Shown: in pieces, positions 1 through 63,837 of the stretch | Numbering within the stretch: position 1 is the stretch's first letter | Layout of the letters: every line of letters begins with the position of its first letter | Origin: Hydrolagus affinis | Taxonomy: Eukaryota | DNA: 64,000 bases | Assembly (NCBI GenBank): GCA_012026655.1 | Contig: JAAILG010000826.1 | Span: forward strand, 1-64,000 | Reading direction: 5' to 3' | Notes under the pieces: generated by a model | Told to the model about the DNA's origin: nothing | The model's input: only the letters and a program-made list of their open reading frames with translations | Database searches by the model: none | Position numbers and translations under genes: made by a program

Positions 1-256
1 CCCCCCCCACCCCTTGCATACCTGTATATTGTATTCGAGGACTATGAATACAATATGGCGGCTTTGCACCTCGGTCTGTGCATTGTGTATAGAGATGAGC
101 ATTCTGGGTCTTGTAGTTCAGTGTGCGCGCATTCCGATTTTTACCTTGATATATCGAGTTTTCGATATATCGATATTTTCGAAATGCCTATATCGGCGTA
201 TTGATATGAAAATTATATCGGGTTTTAACGATATATCGATATATCGCCGGACTCTA
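1..256. mobile_element. Right part of a hAT-type MITE (CGATATATCG-rich), same family as 27020-27364
   Basis: Ends in ATATCGCCGGACTCTA (241-256), matching the right TIR ATATCGCCGGACCCTA of the 27020 element. 121-256 resembles 27165-27364. No left TIR is seen, so it probably lies outside the window. Confidence 0.7.
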
Positions 257-1886
257 ATATACAGTATATATTTTGTGATCCTAACCTTAGTTTATGAATC
301 ATGGTAGAGCCCACTGTAGACCATAGAAAATCATGACTTCCTGTGGTGAAAATTGTGATTTCTTAACAAATTTGAGACTTGAAATTCTACCTAGATCACA
401 TTTGATTGTAAAATTTAAACTCACACAAAATTGTGGATTTTAAAAAGAAATTATTGTTAATTTGGTTGACAGCCTCTTGTATAGAATTCTTCCAAATCAA
501 AACTGAATTCAAGGATTTTCCACACTTCTGCACAAGGACAAATTTAAAAATAAGATTTAAATACAAAACAACACAAAATTGTAAGATTTAAAACTAAGCA
601 GAATGTTGGGCCTTTAATGTGCTGTTGAATCTGTTGACAATAATTGCCTTTTTTTTTACCACCATGCCATGTAATATATGAGAAGCTTGTTTGGTGCTCT
701 TTATGTACCCAATGAAAGTTCCATAAACATTAAAGAGAAATAATAGTGTGCTCCTTTGTTCCAGCCTGTTTTCCAATTATGCCAGAAGCTTTGGAAATAG
801 TTAGACTTATTCAGAAGATTTATGACTCTACGGTGCATTTGTGACTTACAATATTGTTGTCAGTGTCTCTTGTACAGTTTTTGGGACTGTGACTTATTTT
901 CAGATGAAGACTTGTGGAAATTTCATGGTTTGGAGAAAAACTAATTTGCAGTTATTTTGCTGCAAATCTAGATGTATTTCATTGCAAAACAGATGCACCT
1001 TCCCTTCTGTGTACTGTTTCTGGAGTATGTCTTTTTTCTCCTTAGATCCTAGATTTATGTGAAAATGACTTATCACCGCTTCATCCTGTGTTTGAAAGGT
1101 AAAGAGCTTATATGAGCTGGCAATTGATAGATCCGTGTGTGGACCCATTAGTTGTGTTTACCAACCATAGTTTGCAGACATCAAATACTGGAGATATGCA
1201 TACAATATTCAATGTAATCCATGTGTAAAGATATCACACAGTCAGCTTTACTTATTTTTAAAATAATTCAAATGGAAGCAGTTGGCTGCTTTTATCAATT
1301 CAACATCATATTAAGGAATTTATTTCTCAATGCCTATTAAAAGGGGCAGAGGACAAATAATGCGTATCCTAATTTATTTATCGGCTAACACTGTCTGAGG
1401 CTTTGTTGCACAGCACAATATGTTAACTGCAGAGAAGATGTTTTTTCTGTTTATACTTAATCATGCTGAAGCAGTACAGTTATTTGGTTAGGCTACATCT
1501 GAGGTGCTGAGTACTCTTCTGGATACCATGGTATAAGGCCAAGTGCTCCATACTTTTGGTTGCTGAGTGCCAGATGCTCTATATCAGAAATGTAAACAAT
1601 ATTTTTTGTTTCCCTTCCAGAAACATAACCCATAAGAATCATATAGAATTCTTATGTTTTTTTTAATTGTGTACCTGTAATACTTAATTTTAGTATATTT
1701 TAGAACAAATTTAGGTACAATCTTTAAATAGGTAATATAAAAATCCATACATATTTTAAAACAACAATAAACAAACCTTGTAGAGTTTAGATTCAATTTA
1801 ATGTAAAGAACATCATTGCAAAAGAATAAAATTTGGCCTCAAGCAATGCTGTACAAAGACAACATGAATTTAAGTTATATGGGATG

Positions 1887-1935
1887 TAATAATAATAATC
1901 CTTGCATTTGATATAGCGCTTGTCATGTTTTCTAG
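1887..1935 (-). mobile_element. 3' tail of tRNA-Ala SINE, interrupted by an L2
   Basis: (TAA)n-TCCTTGCATTTGATATAGCGCT is the reverse complement of the SINE tail seen in full copies. Confidence 0.8.
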
Positions 1936-2510
1936 ACAACAACAACAACAACAATCTAAACTTATAAAGCGCCTTTCACGTCGGGAGGACGTCCCAAGGC
2001 GCTGCACAAGAGGCATGTGACCCGAGCTGGGGGAGGCATGTGACCCGAGCTGGGGGGAGTGTTCGGGAAGGGGTGAAACACGTAGGGGAGGTTGAAAAGT
2101 TCGGTGGGGAACAAAAGGCACGGTCGAAGATGAAAGTCTTCAAACCCGCCTTCAAAGAGAAAAGGGAGGAAACAAGGCAGAGGGATTGGGGGATGGAATT
2201 CCATAGGGTGGGAGCAGAGAAACTGAAGGCCTGGCCTCCGATGGTGGGATGGTTCGGGCGGGGGGCTTGGAGCAGGCCAAGTCCTGCAGAACGGAGGGTC
2301 TGGATGGGCTTATAGGGGGAGAGTAAATCGGTTAAATAGGGCGGGGCAAGGCCGTGTAATGCCTTGAAGGTGAGGACGAGGATCTTGAACTCGATCCTCT
2401 GGAGGATGGGGAGCCAGTGGAGACGGGCGAGGGTGGGGGTTATGTGGTCGCAGAGGCGGGTGCGGGATAGTACACCGTCTGCAGAGTTTTGGATGACCTG
2501 CAGCCTGTGA
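1936..2510 (-). mobile_element. 5'-truncated L2 LINE (RT C-terminus + 3' UTR)
   Basis: ORF 1976-2539 reads LQVIQNSA..HITPTLARLHWLPILQRIEFKILVLTFKALHGLAPPYL..AFSFSAPTLWNSIP, typical of the L2 ORF2 end. (CAA)n tail; 23-bp tandem duplication in the UTR at 2011-2057. Confidence 0.95.
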
Positions 2511-4336
2511 ATGTGATCCACTGATAAAGCCATTAGCACTGTTGTTACAGAGCAACAGAGATTTCAATTGAACATGACATATGGACCCTCCCTTTCTCAA
2601 GCATCCAGTATGTTCTCCCATTTATCACTGACCTGCACCTTGCATTTGCCAGTTATCTCTTTCCCGATCTGTGATTATTTTCTGCCTTTTCTGACCTAAT
2701 CTCAAGCAAAGTTTTGCTTCCACTTTTAGATATCTAAATTGGCTGAAATTTATCAGTCAAGTTGCTAAATGAAGCCGTGATATACTGATAGTAGTTGTGG
2801 TGGGGGCAGGTTTGGAAAATGTCATGATCTTGTCTTGCCTATCTGATACATCTCAGCTTGAATTTTATAGTTGACAGTAGACAAGCATTGTTAATGGGCA
2901 TGGAGGGTTTGTGGTCTAACCTATCTGGAGGAGGATGCATATTAGCAAGCAAAGAGCAAAAATATATAAATGATTTGTGGTGTCACATTTTTATTTTCAG
3001 TTCACTTCAGTTGAATACTGTTGTCTAGAAGGAAATCAGTGCAGAGATCCCCAAGAATTTTGTGCTGCAGGTAGGACAGGGATAGGGAAATGAATTTAAA
3101 CAATATCTACATTTGTTCTTGAAATAAAATACTGCTATCTACAGAAAATTACCCTGGCACCGTAAATTGAAAGACTGAGGCAAGAATTGTCCAAGCCTTC
3201 TTATTCATGAAACTGAGCTATTCATAGAAGATGTACAGGATGTCATTGCCAAATTCTGTGTCTCTTGGCATACTGAGTGCACCTAATGTTTGTCAATGGA
3301 AGCAGCTGCTTCCAAAATTGGATACTGACTTTGAGTACTGTGATAAAGTAAAGACAGTCATTAAATCAATGCAGTGGTGGATCTCTGAGAGCTGGGAGGA
3401 GTGATAGTTGAAGGGCTGGGCCTCATATCCTTTGACTCTAGGCCACTGGAGTATATTTCAAACAATCAGTTATAGGATTTCATTGTCTGTTGCTATTTCT
3501 TGCCAGAAAATCACTTCCTTAAAGGAAAACTCCAGGCACCAAATGGCATACTTAACACAAAGCACTTGTTCAATAGTGAAGTCTCACTTGTATTGTTTTA
3601 TTCGCACACTAAATATAAACTTGAAAGTGCTAGCTTTCCACTTTCATGATAGTAGCCATTAAGAGCTCTGGGGAGATCATTATGTTTTTTGTCATCAGAT
3701 GATCGTCTGGATGCTAATCCACTGCTGAGTCAGATAAGTATGAGTACAGTGAACTACAAATAAACCTAAGCACAGTTTAATGACAATCAAAAGAGCTTCC
3801 AGGATATCGGAGCATTTCTTCTCCATTCTAATACAGTAGTAGAATTATTGACCTAAATAGAATAAAACATGCACAATATCTTTGTGTCCAAAACATGTAT
3901 GTCCACAGACAGACCCTGTGCAAAGCAACATGGATTTATAGTGGAGCTATTGCTAACTAGCATAATGATACACCCAAATTTCAGTACACTGACTTCTTAG
4001 ATTGTGGTTGATATGACTTCCTGTCATTTGTATGTGAACTATGCACAGGAAACAACAACAAATGAATCGACACTGATGTCACCCTGCGAGTTTGCAAGTA
4101 TGGCCTGCACAGAAGTTGTTGGTGGCATCATTTTATTGCAAGACATGATACCAGCGGTACTTGCATGTGCACAAAACAGTGGAAGTGACATCGGATGACC
4201 TGATGTCCCAGAGTTCAGTCAATTTTCCATGCTTCTCTTATAGCTTAACTTCTGAACTGTTAGACCCAGAGGATTGTGTTATAACTATATTCCCCTATAG
4301 TTTATTACCAATAACCTTTTATTTCACTTTGTCAAA

Positions 4337-4391
4337 ACTAAGTTGCTCTAACCTTGAGTAGAGCAACTACTCAAGGTTAGAGCAACTTAGT
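4337..4391. repeat. Perfect inverted repeat, 25-bp arms, 5-nt spacer
   Basis: ACTAAGTTGCTCTAACCTTGAGTAG-AGCAA-CTACTCAAGGTTAGAGCAACTTAGT. Confidence 0.95.
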
Positions 4392-4634
4392 ACAAGTAAA
4401 GCTACATTGGAAATACATTTATGATTTGTTAATGAATACAATGGAGTGTAAATGGCAGGCACTTCATAATATGCTAATTCATTATTGAGCATATATTGAG
4501 CATATAATGAAGTGCACAAATTTAGTTCCATTCCTTAACTATTGATGATATGTATAACCTCTCCTTTCTTCCCAATGACACCTGCATATTGGATCAGCCT
4601 TCTTACATGACCTTGACACAATGGTTGCAATAAA

Positions 4635-5040
4635 ATACCAAATTACATTTGGATAATGTCTTTCATGTTGGGAGTGCATCCCAAGATACTGGGATTTTGA
4701 CCAAGCTGTGGGTTAAGATCGGGTTGGGGCTGGGGGTGGTGGACAGGGAGGGTGGCCAAAGAGAAAGGTTTTGAGATGCATCTTGAAGGAGGCAAGGTGG
4801 GAGTGAGGTGAAGCGAATGTGGGTTGGAGTTCTATAGATTGGGGGCAGAAAGGATGAAGGCCCATGTGCCGATGGTGGAGAGAGTCGGGTGGGGGACGTG
4901 GAATAGGCCAGAGACTGCTGAGCCAAGAAAGTGGACAGCTTGATATGGAGTCAACAGGTCGCAAAAATAGGGAGGGAAACCCTGTGTGGAAGAGGTCACG
5001 AGCTGCACAATTCTAGATGATCTGCAGTTTGTGGAGGGAA
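4635..5040 (-). mobile_element. Degenerate L2 3' fragment
   Basis: Translated remnants ASFKMHLKTFLFG; L2 tail motif AAATTACATTTG..TTTCATGTTGGGAG..CCCAAG. Confidence 0.85.
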
Positions 5041-5478
5041 TAATTGGTTCTCCAAAACCTTTGCCCTATTAATGTCAATGTCACAGAGGTGAAGTGTGGA
5101 AAGCATATTGTTTGTGTTCTCCATCCTAAATACCTTGAAGAATGAGTCATTTGATATAGTTATTTACTCCTACTCACTCTCCATTTCAATGACCTTTTAG
5201 TGACTCAGGTTTTAATCTCCTTCCTGACTACCATCTTGCTGCTATTATATTAGAATAACCACTTTTTGTGGTTATGTTTGCACACAGATGACACTTGGGT
5301 TTAATGATGGTATCAAGTTATTTTTTCCAGCTCTATTGTAATCTGGAATCAATAAATCCTCTCCAATAGCATCTCTGATGATATCACAAACCTCACCCAT
5401 TGAACAATAAAAATAAATCAAAAACTGGCAGAAATAAGATTCTAATTCTCTGCAGAAATTTGATTTTGAAAGGAGCCT

Positions 5479-5590
5479 AATAATAATAACCCTTGCATTT
5501 GATATAGTGGCTTTCAAGTCAGGAGGCCATCTAAAAGTGCTTCATAGGGTTTACTGTAAGCTCCTGGTGACTGTGTTTTGTAAGGGAACG
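5479..5590 (-). mobile_element. SINE 3' tail fragment
   Basis: TAATAATAACCCTTGCATTTGATATAG tail motif. Confidence 0.7.
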
Positions 5591-5724
5591 ATAGCGATAG
5601 TAACATATATATTTTAAAATCATCTTTCCTTTGGCAGCCTTCCAAATCTCAATTATTTACCAAGCCTCCGTCCTGCATTGTTTTTTCCCTTAATTCTGCC
5701 CAGTTTCTGTATGACTCCCAAATT

Positions 5725-5780
5725 GGCCTGGATTTGAACTAGAGGTGAAAGTCCAGTGTGCTAACGCACTACAATGCACC
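5725..5780 (-). mobile_element. Old tRNA-derived SINE head remnant (LF-SINE-like)
   Basis: Reverse strand reads TTAGCACACTGGACTTTCACCTCTAGTTCAAATCCAGGCC, with a B-box-like GTTCAAATCC and CTTTCACCTCTAG as recalled for LF-SINE-type heads. Confidence 0.4.
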
Positions 5781-6914
5781 ATCCATCATGTGGAATGTTT
5801 TACAATTCTCCCTTGAATTCTCCTCTATTTTTCCTTTCTTGGCTTGAAAATCTTTAACAGTGGCAGAATGGTTAGGATATTTCCATCCTCCACTTACTAT
5901 TGCTTTGTTTGAAGTGCCTTGGTTGACAAGTAGTACAGCCTGCTTCCTTAGTACTAAGTGAATTCAAATCATTTCTGGCCTTTGTTTGCTCATTTCACAG
6001 ATTCTGTATGTTTCCTGTTAATTCCATGATTTCCCTTTTCCCAGTGGAAATTTAGTAAATTAGGCTGTTTCAGCAAAATGCTTTGAACACTTCCCTTTCA
6101 GTCTCCTGAGTAACTAGTTTTTATTTCACAGTATTTTTATTCCTCTTTTATAGAGATCAGAAGTCAAAAATATGAAGTATTTATATAGCTCCTAATATGA
6201 AGTACCAAGGTGCATTTGGATACACGTTTTTTAAACTGCTCCATATGTATGCATGGCGTGGTAGCAAATCAACCATTTCACGTACGATAACAGAATTTGA
6301 TTCAACTTCCTGTTCCAAATTCCCAAAAAGATTTGTAAAATTGCTTCTTTGATCGAATACTATACCTCCAGTTTTGGCCTTCATTTCTTTTCTAGTCAAT
6401 GTTGGTGAGCTGGCACAAATTATTCACTCTTATGTTTCAAGCAAGTTAGATCTTAGATATTGTCAATATTTATATCCAGTTTCAGTCTTGCCTGTAGATT
6501 TCATGATTTATTTCTCAAACAGTCCAAATATTAACAAGAACTCAGCTGAATTCCTTCATCCCCTGCAAACAAACACTGAAATTTAATGCTTTTTCAAATA
6601 TTTGCTGGATTGCATACTGGTTTAACATGAAATATTGCATTATCAACAAAGCAATTGTGGAATGGAAATGTCTTCAGTTCACTATCAACTGCTTTGTAAT
6701 TGTGATTAATTTTCTCATCCTTGCCCATTCAATCATTTCCTATTTCAGATAAAGATGGTAGTTAGACAACTTCTCCAGTGGAAGACTTGAGAAAAAGTAG
6801 AATGCAACCTTAATATCAGAGTTCAAAATGAAAATGGTAAACATTTCTTTAGGGTTAGAAGAATCTGCATGGCTTCTGGGAATACATTGATGAAGAATTG
6901 CTCAACTTGTATAG

Positions 6915-7530
6915 ATAATAATAATCCTTGCGTTTGGTATAGCGGCTTGTCAAGTCGTTGAGGCATCTTGAAGACTGTATATTTTGTGGGGAATACCTGG
7001 CAGCCAATTAATAATAATAATCCTTGCATTTGATATGGCACTTTACATGTCCTCCCGATGTGAAAGGCGCTCTATAAATGTAATTTTGTTGTTATTGTTG
7101 TAGATGTCTCAAAGCACTCTCAGGAAAGCCTTTACTATAAATAACAACATCTACAAAATTACACTTGTATAGCGCCTTTCACGTCTATATTTTGGGGCGA
7201 AACATGGCAGCCAGTTGCAACTGCAGTGTCCATAACAGTAATGGATTGAAATAACCAATTTATTGTTGGTTTTTTTTGAAGGAGTATTATTAGTTATGTG
7301 GAGTAAGGAAACTTGCCCATGGTTTTGCCCTGCCTGGAATCGAACGCAGCTTGCAAGGCGAGTACTCTAACCACTGAGCTACAGGACTCTACGTGCACAG
7401 TGGTGCACAAGTGTCCGACAAACAGTTGTGGATTGAGTGACCAAATTATTATTGTTTTTAGTTTTTTGGGGGAGGTTTATTACCCCATAGAAAGTGATCC
7501 GTCAATCAATTGACTAGATACTTGGGAAGA
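6915..7530 (-). mobile_element. Nested cluster of SINE copies with two embedded L2 tails (7048-7101 +, 7143-7184 -)
   Basis: Two SINE tails (6915, 7008), a SINE head AACCACTGAGCTACAGGACTC at 7369-7389, and L2 tail motifs inside. Confidence 0.85.
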
Positions 7531-8927: not shown

Positions 8928-9327
8928 TGATATAGTGCTTTTCACGTTCCCCAGACTTCTCACAGTGCTTCACAGAATATATTATAAAGTGAATTGACTG
9001 TATGTTTTGTGGGCGAAACACGGCAGCCAATTCTGCACAGCAGTGTCACACAAACAACAGCCACAAAATTACATTTTTAGTATGCCTTTTATGTCAGGAG
9101 GACTTCCTAAGGCAATGAACAGTCGTGGATTGAAATTACCAATTTTTTGGGGGGATTATTGCAACAACAAAATTACATGTGTAAAGTGCCTTTCACGTTG
9201 GGAAGACGTCCTAAATTATCAGACATTTGGAGCAAAGAAATTTTCCCAAGGTTTCACACTGCTTGGAATAGAAACCAGGTTTCTTGCTTGCCAGGCAAGT
9301 ACTCCAACTACTGAGCTATCGGATTCC
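8928..9327 (-). mobile_element. tRNA-Ala SINE with two inserted L2 tails (~9052-9123, ~9162-9213)
   Basis: SINE body, head ACTGAGCTATCGGATTCC at the end, and two ACAAAATTACA..CCTTT..GGA(A/G)GAC motifs inside. Confidence 0.85.
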
Positions 9328-12565: not shown

Positions 12566-12655
12566 AAAACTGTAGATACTCGAAATGCACAGCAGGCCAA
12601 TTAGCATCCAGAAGGGGAAAGTAGGTTGACATTTCAAGGATGGCCCTATCATAGG
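12566..12655 (-). mobile_element. Degenerate Penelope-like terminal repeat fragment
   Basis: Reverse strand ATGATAGGGCCATCCTTGAAATGTCAAC..GGATGCTAATTGGCCTGCTG resembles 62085-62170. Confidence 0.5.
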
Positions 12656-36800: not shown

Positions 36801-37103
36801 CGAATCCTGTAGCTCAGTGGTTAGAGCACTCGCCTTAGAAGCGAGAGTTTGATTCCAGGCAGAGTGAAACCTTGGGAAAGTTTCCTTACTCCACACAATC
36901 CTGATAATATTCCTTCAAGAGAAAATCAATAATAAATTGGTCACTTCAATCCACGACTGTTTGCGAGACACTGCTGTGCGCAATTGGCTGCCGTGTTTTG
37001 CCCAGAAATATAAAATCAATTCACTTTGTAGTCTATTCTGTGAAGTGCTTTGAGACTTTTAGAATACATGAAAAGTGCTCTATCAAATGCAAGGATTAAT
37101 ATT
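36801..37103 (+). mobile_element. Full-length tRNA-Ala SINE inserted in the tail of an opposite-strand SINE
   Basis: TCCTGTAGCTCAGTGGTTAGAGCACTCGCCTTAGAAGCGAG head through the tail; flanked by TTGCAT on both sides. Confidence 0.92.
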
Positions 37104-37346
37104 ATTGCATTTGATGTAGTTCTTTTTATGTCTTCTAGATGTCTCAAAGCGCTTCACAGAATATACTGTAAAATGAATTGACTGCATATAAGTAGGCGAA
37201 AAGCGGTGACCAATTTATTATTTTTGTAGTGATTATTATTAAGTGTGTGAAGTAAGGAAAGTTGCCAGAGGTTTCACCCTGCCTGGAATTGAACCCAGGT
37301 CTCTTGCTTGCAATGCGAGTGCTCTAAACAATGAGCTACAGGGCTC
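37104..37346 (-). mobile_element. Host tRNA-Ala SINE (its tail end lies at 36781-36800)
   Basis: TTGCATTTGATGTAG..body..GAGTGCTCTAAACAATGAGCTACAGGGCTC. Confidence 0.9.
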
Positions 37347-37998: not shown

Positions 37999-38286
37999 TA
38001 ATAATAATAATCCTTGCATTTGATATAGCGCCTTTCACATCTTCTAGATGTCTCAAAGCGCTTCACAGAATATATTGTAAAGTGAATTGACTGTACACTT
38101 GTGGGCGAAATGTGGCAGCCAATTGTGCACTGCAGTGTCCCACAAACAGTCATGGATCGGAATGACCAATTTTATTATTGTGGAGTAAGGAAACTTGCCG
38201 AAGGTTTTGCCCTGACCTGCCTGGATTCGAACACAGGTCTCACGCTTGGAAGACTTATGCTGTAACCACTGAGCTACAGGACTCCA
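37999..38286 (-). mobile_element. Full-length tRNA-Ala SINE (short variant)
   Basis: Near-consensus tail and head AACCACTGAGCTACAGGACTCC. Confidence 0.93.
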
Positions 38287-40895: not shown

Positions 40896-41188
40896 TTACC
40901 TTGCTGAAGGTTACCTGAAGTTTTCTACAGTTTTACCAAGTAGAATTTTACATATAGTATTAAAATAATTCTGTGTTATCTGATCATGTTCCTAGCGACA
41001 TTACTTATGACTGAATTCCAAGCATCTAACAAGGTTTGAACACAATGCACTTTAAAAAAGCTGTTTTCCGGATAATAATCTGTTTAGCATATTTAGGATG
41101 AAAAATATATCCATATTCTTGTTGACTGGGTGCTCACACAATGTAGTTTGAATTACTGACCCTTTAGGCTGAAGTATCAGATAGAGAC

Positions 41189-41288
41189 AAAACACAAAAT
41201 ACTACAAGATACTACAGATCCTGGAAATTTGAAACAAAAATAGAAGCTGCTGGGAAAACTTAGCAGGTCAGGCAGCATCCATGGAGAA
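41189..41288 (-). mobile_element. Penelope-like terminal fragment (same family as 61639-62215)
   Basis: AAACACAAAATACTACA..GGAAATTTGAAAC..CTGGGAAAACTTAGCAGGTCAGGCAGCATCCATGGAGA closely matches the reverse complement of 62128-62215. Confidence 0.8.
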
Positions 41289-43440
41289 ATATATGCGATA
41301 CATAGAAATGCCTAAAACAAATGTATAGACAGTTAATTTAATTCCATTATAATTTGTTTTCCCCTATGCATAGCTGTTGAAACTAAGCTACACAGAAATC
41401 TCTTTCAATTTTAATGACTTTCACTAACTTGCATAACATTAATGAATTCATTACGGTGGCTGAATTAAAATACATTGTGTTGATGCCTTCATTGCCTTCA
41501 GTCCTGCTTATTCATAATTAATCAAAAGTGTAGCTCGTCTATTAAGAAACAGCAAAGCATTTTGATCAGTAATTATTGCCATTCGCATCAGAGTCTGGGT
41601 TCTTTCTATAGAGAATTTATTATGTGATGCTTAGTTGCAATATTCATACATGTGTTTCAAAATAGGTTCATGTGAGTCAAGAGGCTTCACTTTATATTAA
41701 AAAAAACTTGACACAAATTATTTGTAGGCACCTTACCAGGGTTATAGTAAAATTATTGAATCAACTGTGTAAAGGCCAACACCACTGAAATAAAGGCCAG
41801 CACCACAATGTACCAAATAAGAGTTTGTGCTGAAGAATTGGCAGCTGAAGAATCTGAGGGAACAGGTTTTTGCATTGACAGCTCTAATTGGAACCAGAGT
41901 TAACATATGTTCTTCCCCAACTAATGTTTTCTTATAAATCATGCTTGAAATGTCACTTGACTCACAATTTACATAAGCATTTAATCAAAATTTTCAAAAA
42001 AATAGAACGTTACTTTGCAATTTTGGTGCTGGTTTACACTACGTACTTGCCTTTTTGTGTAGTAAAGTGTGCTCTTCATAATGCTATAGCTTGAATCCCA
42101 TTTTTACTTCTCTGTGTCAATTTATGGAAAGTGTTGAGTTACTCAGCTAATCCATTACATGAGATTTTGGAATAGTCAAACCTGTTACTAAAATAGAGTT
42201 ATTGTTGTTTGAATCTCTTTTAGTCTATTGAATATTCACTACACTTCCATTGTTGATGTGTTTTTCTCTTCCCACCATTGATTTAGTGAATCAATCACTG
42301 TGATATCCATCTTCAAGTGGTAAGGATAATTGGCTTTACAAATCAGTCAAGGCTCGGATTTAAATCCAAGGGGCTATGAAGGTGATTATAACCCACCACT
42401 GTAGAGTGGTTTCTAGATTTCAGAAAATAATTGTTGTCTATTTCTCATTCATGCACACCATTGCATCACACCTTGTTTTATTATCTATGCTCTGGATTAA
42501 CACATACTCGGATTGTCCTTCCCACTGGAAATGTTTATCCTGCATTCTCCATTTCTCTCTAATGGCACAGTGAACAAGACTTTCTCATTTCTTATGTAAT
42601 TGTGCTCACAAATCTGCTTCCAAACAGTCCATGGGGTAAAGAATTACACTATAATTTGTGGGTAACGTATTACACTACAATCTGTAAGCAATATGCAGTA
42701 TTCCAATGTGTACTACCATTCTTTGGGTGGGCTGTCCAGTCTGATTTTAAAATGAATGTCAATAGTTTGCATTTACTTCTGCATTTTACAATCTGATAAC
42801 GTTAAAGATTGAAGCAGTCAATGCAGTTTAATAATCAGGAAAGCAATCCTCAGAACTGAAGCCATGTTCCTGCACCCTGCCTGCCCTTGTCCTGGATGTG
42901 TAGTTTAGGCAAATGGAACAGAAATGCCTAATTATAAATTCATATTGAACTGACGCAAATAGATCTAAAAACAATTGTGTTGCACAGTTTGAAAATTAGT
43001 GGCACCCAATGATTTTTTATTATATAATGCAGATTGTAGTCATTTTATTTCTTAAATCAATCTTTTGCGGATATGAATCTCTTCTGGCCAGCATCATTTT
43101 GATATTATGCAACAACTCATGAACACTCGGGATGGGTCGTACATTGAAATAATTTGGCTAGTAATTCCCTATTATGTCCATTTTATTGCTGGTTTACAGT
43201 TTAGATCAGGATTGATAATTTATTTTCGTGAAACATAACCACTTCCACAACTGAACCAATACAATATTAGGGCCGCACATGGCTGCATTGGCATCAAACC
43301 CAAAGCACCAAAAGAATAACAACAAATGGATAAACAACAAACTTTTGCTGATTTTGCATCATATGCTGCATGAAAATCAGCTGTCACAACCAATAAAATC
43401 ATAGCATTTGTGTATAAAAGGCTCAAAGCTTTTATTTATA

Positions 43441-56063: not shown

Positions 56064-56368
56064 TAATAATAATAATAATCCTTACATTTGATATAGCACT
56101 TTTCACGTCTTCTAGATGTTACAAAGCACTTCACAGAATACTGTAAAGTGAATTGACTGTATATTTGTGCGTGAAACATGGCAGCCAATTGTGCATAGCA
56201 GTGTCACACAAACAGTCGTGGATTGAATGACTGAATTATTTTTTGGGAACGAATTAGTATTAGGTGTGAGGAGTAAGTAAACTAGCCCAAGGCTTTGCCC
56301 TGCCTGGAATCGAACCCAGGTCTTTCACTTTTGAGGCGAGTACTCCAACTACTGAGCTACAGGACTCC
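56064..56368 (-). mobile_element. Full-length tRNA-Ala SINE inserted in an older + strand SINE tail
   Basis: Tail through head ACTGAGCTACAGGACTCC. The flanks GAAGCACTTT..GATGCTATC (56022-56063) and CTATTAAATGCAAGAATTATTATT (56370-56393) join into one SINE tail. Confidence 0.9.
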
Positions 56369-58286: not shown

Positions 58287-61200
58287 ATGGCCACACATCC
58301 TCTGGGATGATGCCGCTCTGCTGATCCCTTGCTCTTGGCTCCCTGCGTGCTCACTTTGGCTGCTGCCCCGACCCGAGCCTCCCCCCACACCCTAAATGTC
58401 TGTCCTCCCAACCCCCTCTATATACTACTCCCACGCTGTCCTTCTCTCCCACTTCCCCCGCTGCCTATCTCCCCTCAGCCCACCTCTGCAACTCTCCCGC
58501 TCTGCCCTGCTCTCTCTCCGCCCTTCCCGCCTCCCATCCCCACTCGACCCTCCCACAGCCTCCCCCTGCTCCAGCCTGGGAATCCTCTGCCAGGCTCACC
58601 ATGGCACTCAATGTTGGTTGTCGAGCAGCAGCCACACCGATTGTCCCATTCCACATCACTGCCGCCAGCCACACCAAACACAGATCTGGGGGGCTAACCT
58701 CTCCTCTCTCATCCCCATCCCCTCCACCCCTACTGCCCAATCCGGTCCCCACTTACATCCCTCTGCCAACTGCTCCCTTTGTGTTGGCCTCCAAAATGTC
58801 CGCTCCCTCTGCAACAATACCCAGGCCATCAACGATCTCATCCTCAATGAAAACGTTCACATCATGGCCCTAACTGAAACCTGGATCACCCCAGGGGACA
58901 CCTTCCCCCTCACAGAGGCCACACCACCTGGCTACACCTTCCACCACGTCCCTCGCCCCAACCGGTGCGGCGGTGGCCCTCATCTCTAGGGAGCCACTTG
59001 CCCTATCCTCCTACTCCTCTGGTTCCTTCCCCTCTTTCGAACACCTCACCCCTCTCCCACTCCTCCCATCTCTCCCTCAAAATCCTCCTTGTTTACCATC
59101 CCCCAAAATCCTCCCCAACCTTCATCTCTGACTTCTCCACACTCCTTGTCTCCCTCTGTGCCTCCTCCAATCGCCTCATCATCCTCGGCGACTTTAACCT
59201 CCACTTCACACCCTCCTGCTCCACATCCTCAGAATTCTCCTCCCTCATCTCCTCTCTCAACCTCTCCCTCCACATCCACTCCGCCACCCACGTTCACGGC
59301 CATCCGCTTGACATGGCGATCACCCGGGGACTCAGTGTCTCGGATGTCACCATCTCTGACAAGGCCATCTCCAACCACCACTTCATTCCTTTCAACTCCT
59401 ATAACCCTCTTCCCTCTACCCCCAAACCTACCACCATATTCTACTGCTTATGGAAGAAGGTCCCCCCCACAAACTCTCTCCACTGCCTTGGAGTCCTCCG
59501 AACTCCTCTCCTTCTGGCTCATCTCCTGCACTAACCCATCCTCCGCACCCTTTCCACCACATTCAACACTCTTGCCCCCCTCACTTCCCGAACTGCCTCC
59601 TACTCCCGAACCTCACCCTGGTTCACCACCCACCTTCATTCCCTCAAGGGCCAGGTGCGGGCCACTGAATGCACCTGGCTCAAATCTATCCTCACGGTCC
59701 AGCGGCATATTTGGCTGGACCTCACATCTTCCTACCGCTCCATCCTATCCTCCGCCAAATTGTCCTTCTACTCCAAGATAATCCTGGAGGCGAAGGACAA
59801 CCCCGGACTTCTCTTCTCCACCACCAACCGTCTCCTCCGACCACCCCGCCTTGCCTCGCAGATCCTATCCTCAAACTCCCGCTGCAAGGAGGCGCTGGAT
59901 TTCCTCGTGACCAAAATTGAGGGAATCCTCTCTGCGGTCACTGTCCCCCTACATTCCACCCCCTCCCCACCTCCCCCCCACACCCGGTCTCCTACCCATC
60001 CCCCCCTCCACACCTTCGACCCCATCTCCCCATCCTACATTATTGAGACCATCTCCTCAATGAAGCTCACCACCTGCTCCCTTGATCCCATCCCCACTCC
60101 CTTCAAAACTGCCACCATCATTCCCATCTTAAAAAAGCCTTTCCTTGATGTGTCACAGCTATCAAGCTACCAGCCCATCTCCAACCTCCCCTTCCTTTCC
60201 AAGGTCCTTGAAAGAGTGGTTGTCTCCCAGCTCTACTCTTTCCTCACAAAACACACACTCCTCGAACCCCTTCAATCAGGTTTCCGTGCCTCCCACAGCA
60301 TGGAAACTGCCCTGGTCAAGGTCACAAACGACATCCTGACCATCTGTGACCAGGGCTCCCTCTGCCTCCTCGACCTATCCGCTGCCTTCGATACCGTGGA
60401 TCATGCTATCCTCCTGCACCACCTTTCCTCCCTCCTCAACCTGCAAGGCTCTGTCCTCGAATGGTTCCAATCCTCTCTTTCCCACCGCCTTCACTTCGTC
60501 TCCTCCAATGACTTTTCCTCCAGCCCCTGCACAGTCACATGCAGGGTTCCCCAGGGCTCTGTCCTTGCCCCCCTGCTCTTCACCCTCTACACTCTCCCCC
60601 TGGCCGACATCATCTAGACATGGGGTAAATTTCCACATGTATGCGAATGACACCCAACTCTACCTATTCACGTCAACCCTCGATTCCATGACCACTGGCG
60701 TTCTGACTGCATGTCTGTCGGACATTGAGTCCTGGATGAGGGCAAATTTCCTACAACTCAACGATGGAAGCCCTCCTGATTGGCTCACATCAACACCTCC
60801 GCACCTCAGGCGCTGACAACATCAGCATTCAAAGCTGCTCTCTCCACCTCTCAAAGCCAATCAGGAATCTGTGTGTATTGTTCGATCCCAAACTATCCTT
60901 CCTCCCCCGCATCCGCTCCATGACCGGCACAGCCTTCCACCACCTCTGCAATATTGCCCGACTCCGCCACTACTTCACCCTCCACGCCGCCGAAACTCTT
61001 CATCCACGCCTTTATCACTTCAAGGCTCAATTACGGGAACTCTCTTTTCATCGGCCTCCCCTTCACAGGCTGCAGATCGTTCAGAATTCTGCAGCTCATC
61101 TATTCTCCCGCATCAGGCTTCGCGACCACATCACTCCCACCCTCGCCTGTCTCTGTTCAGCGGACTCAGGCCTGCTCCGCGTCCACCGCCCTAACCACCC

Positions 61201-61495
61201 AACCATCGGTGGCCGGGCTTTCAGCCGCTCTGCTCCCACACTGTGAAACTCCATCCCTCAGCCCCTCCGCCTTGCTTCCTCCCTTTCCTCCTTCAAGGCC
61301 GGTCTCAAGACCTTCCTCTTTGACCGCACTTTCGGCTGCCCCACCAACTCTTCCCCCCTCCCACTCTCCTTCCCCTTCCCCCTACCCTGATCCTACCACC
61401 CCCTCGCTCGGGTCCCGACCTGACTGTTCAGTGCTTTAGGACGTCCTCCTGATGTGAAAGGCGCTATATAAGTGCAAATTTGTTGTTGTTGTTGT
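58287..61495 (+). mobile_element. Near full-length, inactivated L2 LINE (APE endonuclease + RT)
   Basis: APE motifs LQNVRSL, IMALTETWI, IILGDFNLH, THVHGHPLD; RT motifs YQPISNLPFLSKVLERVV, QSGFRASHSMETALVKV, LDLSAAFDTVDH, VPQGSVLAPLLF, YANDTQLY. (TTG)n tail; several frameshifts and deletions. Confidence 0.97.
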
Positions 61496-61700
61496 ATCAG
61501 CTCTATCTTAGCTCCTACTCATTGGGTCTCTATTGACCCAGTGGATTTCCATTATGAACTAGCAATCAAAATGTTCTCAATCAGCATATGATAGAGTATA
61601 TTTTACATCAGTTGCATAAATAAACACTTAATGTAGCCCAAAACAGAAGTTACTGGGAATACTCAACAGGTCAGGCAACATCCATGGAGAAAGGAAAGTG

Positions 61701-61738
61701 AGTCAAAGTTTCAGTTCCATAACCCTTCATCGGAACTG
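61701..61738 (-). ncRNA. Second, more decayed hammerhead-like motif in the left arm
   Basis: Reverse strand AGTT-CCGATGA-AGGGTTATGGAACT-GAAA-CTTT-GACT; the core carries a U-to-C change. Confidence 0.45.
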
Positions 61739-62080
61739 GGGCAGAGAAGTTGGGAGGGAGAGGTTTTTAAGGACAAATTAGAGAGGGGGAGGCAGGACAA
61801 GAAAGACAAAGGGTTTAAACAAAAACTGGGGTGTTAATGGTGAAGAGCAGATGAAGCACCAGAGAGGCAAGGGGTGTCTGGAGTGATGATTGTAATAGGT
61901 GAGGGGGAGCTTTCATGGTTTTATTTAAAAACCCATCCCCTTTTGTCTCTTACTGTTATCACCTATTTAACCGATCAATTAACAAATGTTTTCCTTTGTC
62001 TTTTTTGTCTCCTTTGGCTTCCTTATATTGCCTCCCGCTTCTAACTTGTCCTTAAATACCTCTCCCTCACAACATGCCCC

Positions 62081-62118
62081 AGTTCTGACGAAGGGTCGTG
62101 GACCCGAAACATTGACTC
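62081..62118 (+). ncRNA. Minimal hammerhead-ribozyme-like motif (partly decayed)
   Basis: AGTT-CTGACGA-A-GGGTC-GTG-GACCC-GAAA-CATT-GACT: both core boxes (CUGANGA, GAAA), a 5-bp helix II and a 4-bp helix I. The palindromic helix III AACGTT appears as AACATT. Confidence 0.6.
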
Positions 62119-63837
62119 ACGCTCCTTTCTCCATGGATGCTGCCTGACCTACTGAGGTTTCCCAGCAACTTCTGTTTTTATTTCAGATTTCCAACATTGT
62201 AGTATTTTGTGTTTTACTTAATATAGCCATATCAACTCAAAAATTGGCTAGAGTTAACCCAAACCCTTTTATCAGTATTCTGTCACCATAGTACTTTGAG
62301 GTTGTCTAATATTGCAGATTCCTTTGATAAACAAAATCCCCATTAGGTTGACATTTACTGAGAAATAGAAAGTTGAAACTTACACTAAATAAACTGGGGT
62401 TTATTCCACAGTGCAGCAGATTGTCAAACTCATCCAGAACCATTTTATGAAACATACCATAATCATCATAGTGGAGGAAAAATCTTTTCCAAGTAGTGGG
62501 TTGGTAATAAAATTACAACTTTGCATGTACAGATGTGACTACCATAGTGTAGTTAAAGAACTACATCAGGGAAGTCAAATAAATATCTTCTTTGTGAATC
62601 TTATCCCAATATATGATAGATCTTTAAATAATATTATACGTAAAATTTAACTACCTTTTATATTTTACATTTTAATCCCCAGAACATCTGCAATTTGAAG
62701 TGAAACACTGTTATGTTTTATGACTCTGTTTAAATATTGAAATGTTCCAGAAATAGTTTACCTTTTCTATCCTGATGTTGTGACATTGGAGAAGAATTAT
62801 GTCGTTATATGTTTTTGGTGCTGTCAATGGATGCATATATTGCCTAGTAACTTAGTGTGCACAGAATTATATTTTGTTACGGTGATATTGATTAAAATAC
62901 TTGGATCTAGGTAAATGTTTTTCCTTGTTACCACATTGGAATGGAGTGTGATGGCAACATTATTGATTTGTGAAAAGTTAAAGGGAGGTTAGTTCATTAA
63001 ATGAGCCCACGTTATTGACTGCGCAGAACTTGTAGTTAATTTATCTGTTTCTGAGTTCCTTTGAATGAAAGCTTTCTGTTCAGTATGTAGTGACATTTTG
63101 ATGTGATAACTTGCTATATAATGCAAGCAATTTTATTATTATCTTAATTCAGATCATTATCCATTTTGCTTATGAAGAATTCAACCCAAGCTTTGTCTGT
63201 TTCGTGTCTTAGGTCTGTTGCTGCATCGAAACAAAATGGATAGTTCAATTATATTATCCAGGCAAATATCCTTACTTTATCCAAATTCAACCCAAAATTC
63301 TGATTATAGTTGATAGTCAATTACCCATGCAAATGGACCAGCTGTATTCAGCTCCTGAATCACGAAACAGTGCAGGTAATTATACATCTATAAAATATGT
63401 AACTTTGACTAGAGTTAACTCCAAGTTTTCTATCACTATTCTGCCACTGTAGTACTGTATTACTCTAGCCTGCTTTTCTCTCACTAATCCTACTTGGTGG
63501 ATGGGGGGAGATTTTACACAGCCTGTGGAGGCAGGAGGCTTGATGAGTGAAATGGCTTTTCTTATCAGAAGCGTTTCTATCCTCTTTTGGTTGGTAAGAA
63601 TTAATTCACAAAATATAATTGAAGCAAATTTTTTCCTCTCACCACCCCACAATAACTTTATTTTTAGCAGAGTTGGAGAGAGTAACTTAAGTTGTTAAAG
63701 ATAAAATTAATGAATTATGTGAATTTGGTCTAATCTTTGAATTAGGCTAATAAGAAAGTACATTTTTGCCTAAAATTTAAAATCACACTTCCCATCTTGT
63801 GAAAGTTGGGAGGATTCATATATTAGATAAAACATTA

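Follow-up and report, generated by a model that had tools for sequence, protein, structure and literature searches.

The palindromic unit at positions 61626–62228 of the window (the whole stretch of 64,000 nt analysed here) almost certainly consists, judging from sequence comparison, of two 3' ends that are truncated on their 5' side, lie head-to-head and derive from a Penelope-like retrotransposon (PLE) which is abundant and bears an endonuclease. Both 3' ends sit inside one 13-bp repeat, and they probably go back to a single old insertion in which two strands primed separately. The locus itself is an ordinary, dead, one-off insertion of little weight, and its layout has been described for PLEs before: the inverted 5'-truncated copy, the one-sided tail of 30–40 bp, the TSD and the hammerhead in the pLTR are all published.

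Anatomy of the palindromic unit

The unit is a 577-bp, mirror-image, non-coding sequence bracketed by a 13-bp direct repeat, and the fold of its RNA has a z-score of −19.8 against 20 shuffles. The inverted arms (61640–61812 versus 62011–62178) share 82.7% identity over 173 columns (blastn, E = 4e-45). The first-pass annotation had described a unit whose two ends are inverted copies, and these arms stand. The unit is asymmetric, however, as about 36 nt at the right end (62180–62215) are missing on the left, and its middle is no spacer: in the alignment with longer copies the arms overlap by 2 nt. The features, as read from the alignments, are as follows (the last lies elsewhere in the window).

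61626–61638, + strand: left TSD, 13 bp (12 of 13 positions match 62216–62228; family-wide TSD test)
61639–61919, − strand: left arm, an inverted 5'-truncated PLE 3' end of the short type, with no tail (alignment with the longer natural copies L006 and L020)
61701–61737, − strand: left minimal hammerhead, degraded (C in place of U4 at 61732, mispairs in helix II, helix III palindrome lost at 61707)
61918–61919, no strand: head-to-head inversion junction with a 2-nt overlap, absent from the other scored copies
61918–62215, + strand: right arm, a 5'-truncated PLE 3' end of the long type (alignment with longer copies)
62081–62117, + strand: right minimal hammerhead (intact in core and helix II; a CpG-type change at 62111 has destroyed the helix III palindrome)
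62081–62215, + strand: pLTR of about 135 bp, the unit that opens long copies upstream of the ORF (L148, L152, L153, L156, L159)
62180–62215, + strand: one-sided tail of about 36 nt (bimodal 3' ends; one tailed end in 31 of 31 pairs)
62216–62228, + strand: right TSD, 13 bp (12 of 13 positions match 61626–61638)
41187–41289, − strand: tailed 3'-end fragment of the same PLE family (83–87%), starting downstream of the hammerhead

On reference coordinates (locus L006, positions 500–1800) the left arm spans about 907–1260 and the right arm 1002–1299; about 95 nt of upstream sequence is found in the left arm only, and the tail in the right arm only. The left arm extends 5' up to the region of the ORF stop codon (alignment with L006 and L020) and carries an internal deletion of about 76–81 nt at 61811/61812 (alignment with longer copies). 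The right arm is composed of a 3' UTR part (61918–62080) and the pLTR (62081–62215), and is 83–91% identical to the other 39 scored copies of the own-genome search (query positions 293 or 304 to 590). The two arms mismatch at 25 of 168 sites, and the window copy is likely an old insertion that has decayed since. The left arm also matches the Rfam family SMAD5-AS1, but far under the gathering score (E = 0.44), and this match was dismissed as chance.

The parent element and its hammerhead

The window copy is truncated and has neither an RT nor a GIY-YIG frame, but in longer copies at other loci of the genome the upstream sequence holds frames for GIY-YIG and RT as well as a cysteine linker, in agreement with the Penelope origin that had been proposed for the unit. 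RT frames in two of these copies (L072 and L078) match Pfam RVT_1 with E-values of 3.7e-7 and 1.5e-6, one above and one just below the cut-off, and both contain the DKG motif; a 487-aa RT stretch has no match at E ≤ 1 among PDB sequences. The GIY-YIG domain of a decayed copy is matched at E = 0.0028, under the curated Pfam cut-off, and the nuclease residues C155, C158, H177, H199, R173, E222 and N238 are invariant in comparison with three full-length relatives (39–43% identical). The linker, CX4CxxC, is present in L075, L080 and the three full-length relatives, and its first C is altered in L076. The closest named proteins to the parent frames are from sharks and rays (58–64% identity), so that a cartilaginous fish is the probable host.

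By the motif diagnostics of Craig et al. (2021, PMC8557442) the parent is a C-terminal EN+ PLE of the Neptune/Nematis type. Neptune and Nematis elements have a C-terminal GIY-YIG with CCHH and a CX2-5CxxC linker (PMC8557442), and the parent shares with them the DKG motif, the RT, the CX4CxxC linker, the C-terminal GIY-YIG and the invariant C, C, H and H. The separate fold-back family envisaged by the first-pass annotation is the autonomous RT- and GIY-YIG-bearing element itself. A search of mostly non-subscription literature turned up no paper that describes the family from sharks or chimaeras, and the family may already be named in Repbase or Dfam.

The terminal unit of about 135 bp likewise occurs upstream of the ORF in 5 of 20 loci fetched (L148, L152, L153, L156 and L159), where it starts at reference 1162–1165 and runs into the ORF; because it both precedes the ORF and ends the element, it can be assigned as the pLTR. 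The hammerhead makes up its first 37 nt, and in long copies the first ATGs are just downstream of the tail. Three loci (L152, L156 and L145; G000 C54569, C27808 and C896) have a pLTR, about 1.1 kb of 5' ORF and a further pLTR, joined at an identical or almost identical point in all three, a layout that makes them candidates for a true non-autonomous deletion derivative of the PLE. Similar layouts with other junctions are seen in L148, L143, L160 and L151.

The motif C(U/C)GANGA-stem-GAAA occurs at 62085 (+) and 61733 (−), so that each arm does carry a hammerhead-like motif; the Rfam hammerhead models gave no match at E ≤ 1 over the whole 64,000-nt window. Among 140 instances of the family hammerhead the non-CpG core positions are conserved in 136–140, and positions 15.2–16.2 read CG in 71, CA in 48 (a number inflated by the queries) and TG in 15 instances. 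Core and palindrome are both fully intact in 39 of the 140. The variation is concentrated at CpGs, as it would be if an intact master had given rise to copies that then underwent neutral deamination; the copies of the family descend from one young master.

Going by its motifs, the family hammerhead matches the minimal type-I hammerhead, to which the first-pass annotation had pointed, in both cores and in its palindromic helix III. It has the CUGANGA core, the extra base between A9 and G10.1, the G10.1–C11.1 pair, the 5-bp helix II, the 4-bp helix I and the palindromic 15.2–16.2 described for that type (PMC4209133). Such hammerheads occur as paired motifs 100–700 bp apart on opposite strands, and their cleavage is low and depends on dimers (Cervera and de la Pena 2014, PMC4209133). 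The two window hammerheads differ from the type in that neither has kept the palindrome; U4 is missing from the left one as well. At 61732 the family letter differs from that of the window copy (contigs of related runs), and at 62111 G is the majority letter in three of four runs and is found in about half in the fourth. Both window hammerheads are predicted to be inactive because the palindromes are lost and, in the left arm, U4 is changed as well; this fits the catalytic impairment suspected at first. The computed self-duplex energies are +0.1 (right arm) and +1.9 kcal/mol (left arm), versus −5.7 kcal/mol for an intact natural copy. The idea that each transcript would hold one ribozyme inside a long hairpin finds no support in the fold prediction for the whole-unit transcript, in which helix II of the hammerhead has a pair probability of 0.0, so that no folded ribozyme would be present.

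Hammerhead cleavage was rejected as the source of the 5' ends: of the tailed copies collected with a hammerhead-free query, 20 out of 29 start at reference 1160–1168 and one out of 29 at the cut site, and over all ends only 3 out of 172 fall in the cut-site region (reference 1195–1200). Since the starts of the copies accumulate where helix I begins, at its first base, and not at the cut site, it would not be the ribozyme that sets the ends of the RNA being mobilised. The pile-up site reads like an initiator. For comparison, the internal promoter of D. virilis Penelope includes an initiator (PMC2377424). It would appear that the copies are made from uncleaved RNA, as for the anole element in vitro (PMC11167929). 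That element, Poseidon_Ac (PAc) of Anolis, resembles the family in several further respects: two classes of 3' ends bound the tail, the tail is at the pLTR–ORF junction, targets are AT-rich and no sign is reported of copies starting at the ribozyme cut site (PMC11167929). PAc, however, belongs to the Penelope/Poseidon clade and its ORF begins inside the hammerhead, and not just downstream of the tail as here.

Paired ends, junctions and the origin of the inverted arms

In each search the best 40 candidates were scored, out of 82–7116 candidates. The whole unit as query gave 7116 first-look candidates in its own genome; every other copy among the best 40 matched the right part only (query positions of about 293–590), and most of them have the left-central part (186–294) directly upstream on the opposite strand. 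A junction-centred query had 853 candidates, and of the best 40 that were scored, the window copy alone runs across the junction. We found 31 distinct head-to-head pairs, including the window copy, among 189 loci; pairs whose arms are more than 60 nt apart or stop short of reference 1240 (e.g. L008 and L020) and flank duplicates are not in this count. The 31 pairs fall into 26 junction classes (5-nt bins), range from 156 to 1412 bp in length and mostly have gaps of at most 10 nt at the junction. The inversion points thus differ from copy to copy, which argues against the non-autonomous fold-back element, mobilised as a unit, of the first-pass annotation and is the outcome by which that annotation itself would have recognised a one-off insertion product. 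In contigs of four other sequencing runs there are 150 joints across the unit, and all of the 15 that were listed differ; loose ends in these contigs cluster at 62080–62082. The right junction (62159–62320) is covered, with 2 differences, by a contig of run X4, and the insertion is therefore also present in X4. The contigs of the four runs, in which the left flank is uncovered, showed no empty site. Short extra copies of the hammerhead start are seen at 5' junctions (in the upstream flanks of L113, L116, L118 and L127 and in joints of the other runs), which suggests repeated template jumps at the 5' end of the RNA.

The 3' ends of the family are bimodal, either short (reference ~1254–1270) or tailed (~1291–1301), and all 31 pairs consist of one short end and one end with a tail of about 35 nt. 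No pair with two tailed ends was found among the 189 loci. Pairs with two short ends are under-sampled, since the tail was part of most queries; a tail-free query (30 loci) gave 5 further pairs, all of them with one short and one tailed end. We found no paper that states this strict end-pairing rule in the literature searched (mostly non-subscription).

The direct repeat is a real TSD, as had been supposed. TSDs with at least 10 matches are found in 22 of the 31 pairs as compared with 7 of 930 mismatched flank pairs, and TSDs with at least 12 matches in 15 of 31 as compared with 0 of 930; nine pairs have no clear TSD (fewer than 10 matches). Tailed solo copies have a TSD in 22 of 52 cases (14 of 884 in controls). 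The TSDs of the family are real and far above chance, and those of the head-to-head pairs are about 9–16 bp long. The copies L025, L040, L044, L069, L123 and L139 lie in an (ATT)n/(AAT)n tract that terminates another repeat, consistent with a choice of AT-rich targets. The short class of 3' ends falls on a pyrimidine tract (reference 1255–1269; window 62172–62186, + strand) that has CAG at its end and resembles a 3' splice site; PLE pLTRs can hold introns.

An inverted 5'-truncated copy, a one-sided tail and a TSD are typical of PLEs (PMC8557442, PMC3846280). For example, Pen2a_Av and Pen2_Av of Adineta vaga have a head-to-head inverted 5'-truncated copy with a TSD (PMC3846280), EN+ PLE insertions have a tail of 30–40 bp on one side only (PMC8557442, PMC3846280), and Penelope of D. 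virilis has variable inverted terminal repeats and a 34-bp repeat (PMC2377424), the arm length being likewise variable here. Compared with the published EN+ insertions, both copies in the window are cut down to the non-coding 3' end, the strict pairing of short and tailed ends is counted here (31 of 31), and the TSDs of about 9–16 bp compare with 8–10 bp in the rotifer cases (PMC3846280).

We lean towards a mechanism with two primers for the inverted arms. The GIY-YIG domain would nick both target strands in AT-rich DNA with a stagger of about 13 bp, and each nicked 3'-OH would prime a separate reverse transcription on the element RNA, one cDNA beginning at the tailed start site and the other at a site about 35 nt upstream. 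Both cDNAs would stop early and would then be joined via the 2-nt overlap, and fill-in of the staggered nicks would give the TSD. Frangieh et al. (2024, PMC11167929) showed that the anole PLE protein, a predicted dimer, cuts each of the two strands and extends it, has a preference for AT-rich targets and initiates reverse transcription internally, at two sites between which the tail lies; in the same work, however, the use of start sites shows no strand difference, which counts against two primers. The pairs may be the fossil record of an asymmetric two-sided TPRT, in which a PLE dimer nicks about 13 bp apart and its subunits work from different start sites on an uncleaved RNA template, a possibility that we hold to be evenly balanced. 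If each subunit uses a different start site, every palindrome will have one short and one tailed end. Parts of this model are already found in PMC11167929 and PMC8557442.

Arkhipova et al. (2013, PMC3846280) favour self-priming for the head-to-head repeats of PLEs: one cDNA folds back, or an antisense RNA primes itself, and copies its own sequence. Their view speaks against two primers, and three of our observations would suit it: the short arm is nested inside the tailed arm in 15 of 31 pairs, the arms within a pair are slightly closer than between pairs (non-CpG distance 6.0% versus 7.2%, permutation p = 0.0004), and the subfamily letter at reference 1243 is common to both arms in 30 of 30 pairs (26 T/T, 4 C/C). 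The shared letter fits one RNA species, whether a single molecule or two were copied. Against self-priming, the window unit has about 95 nt of extra upstream sequence in the left arm and an extra tail in the right arm, and as in the window, 8 of 31 pairs have a short-ended arm that exceeds the tailed arm in 5' reach by more than 10 nt. Neither arm of such non-nested pairs can therefore be a copy of the other, which favours two primers over a simple snap-back; self-priming would need an extra jump back to the RNA, and we regard it as unlikely.

It is highly improbable that the unit is a palindromic element with hammerheads that lacks autonomy and is transcribed and moved in one piece. The unit is non-coding, flanked by a TSD and strongly folded, as such an element would be, and in 8 of 31 pairs the inner ends are at most 10 nt apart, mostly at the pLTR start, giving alike palindromes of 220–255 bp. 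These small palindromes are alike because both arms stop at the element's own 5' end, however, and among the scored copies the window copy is alone in extending over the whole unit and across its junction; the lengths and junction classes vary as given above. A rearrangement after insertion (two insertions that arose independently side by side, or copies that recombined) would draw on the abundance of the family, and the left arm does carry a deletion; yet a single TSD encloses both arms, and neither the pairing of a short with a tailed end in every pair nor the narrow junction gaps are expected of random neighbours, so that we give this explanation almost no credence. A MITE or fold-back DNA transposon is ruled out by the asymmetric ends of all 31 pairs and by their range of lengths. 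Non-LTR retrozymes (bioRxiv 10.64898/2026.07.22.740005) are non-coding, hammerhead-bearing and related to pLTRs like the window unit, but they form head-to-tail tandem arrays, whereas the unit is a single head-to-head pair; they are ruled out here, as there is no direct repeat longer than 18 nt in 61000–63000.

We see the interest of these truncated copies in the class and not in the single locus: they bear on how PLEs build inverted repeats with one-sided tails, a question named as unresolved in PMC8557442. The counts (a short and a tailed end in 31 of 31 pairs, 8 of 31 non-nested, TSDs of about 9–16 bp and 5' ends at the pLTR start) can be turned into predictions for the anole in vitro system. 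In cartilaginous-fish-like genomes, palindromic hammerhead-bearing units should not be annotated as MITEs or as new non-autonomous families.

Other repeats in the window

Two related end fragments had been proposed in the first-pass annotation, and one of them holds: 41187–41289 (−) belongs to the family, although the hammerhead is absent from it. The other, 12566–12655 (−), was missed by blastn and is weakly similar (local score 50 versus a maximum of 39 in 200 shuffles); it is likely a highly diverged hammerhead-pLTR-like remnant, of an older PLE family at best.

A decayed LINE with an APE endonuclease (PF14529, E = 9e-7) and an RT (PF00078, E = 1e-18) is found at about 58300–61495 (+). It is C-rich, terminates some 130 bp to the left of the unit with a few TTG repeats, (TTG)n, and is taken by us to be CR1/L2-like. 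Five tRNA-like matches that are alike, at 37274–37345 (−), 56295–56366 (−), 36803–36867 (+), 38212–38283 (−) and 9262–9318 (−), are probably the heads of a tRNA-derived SINE.
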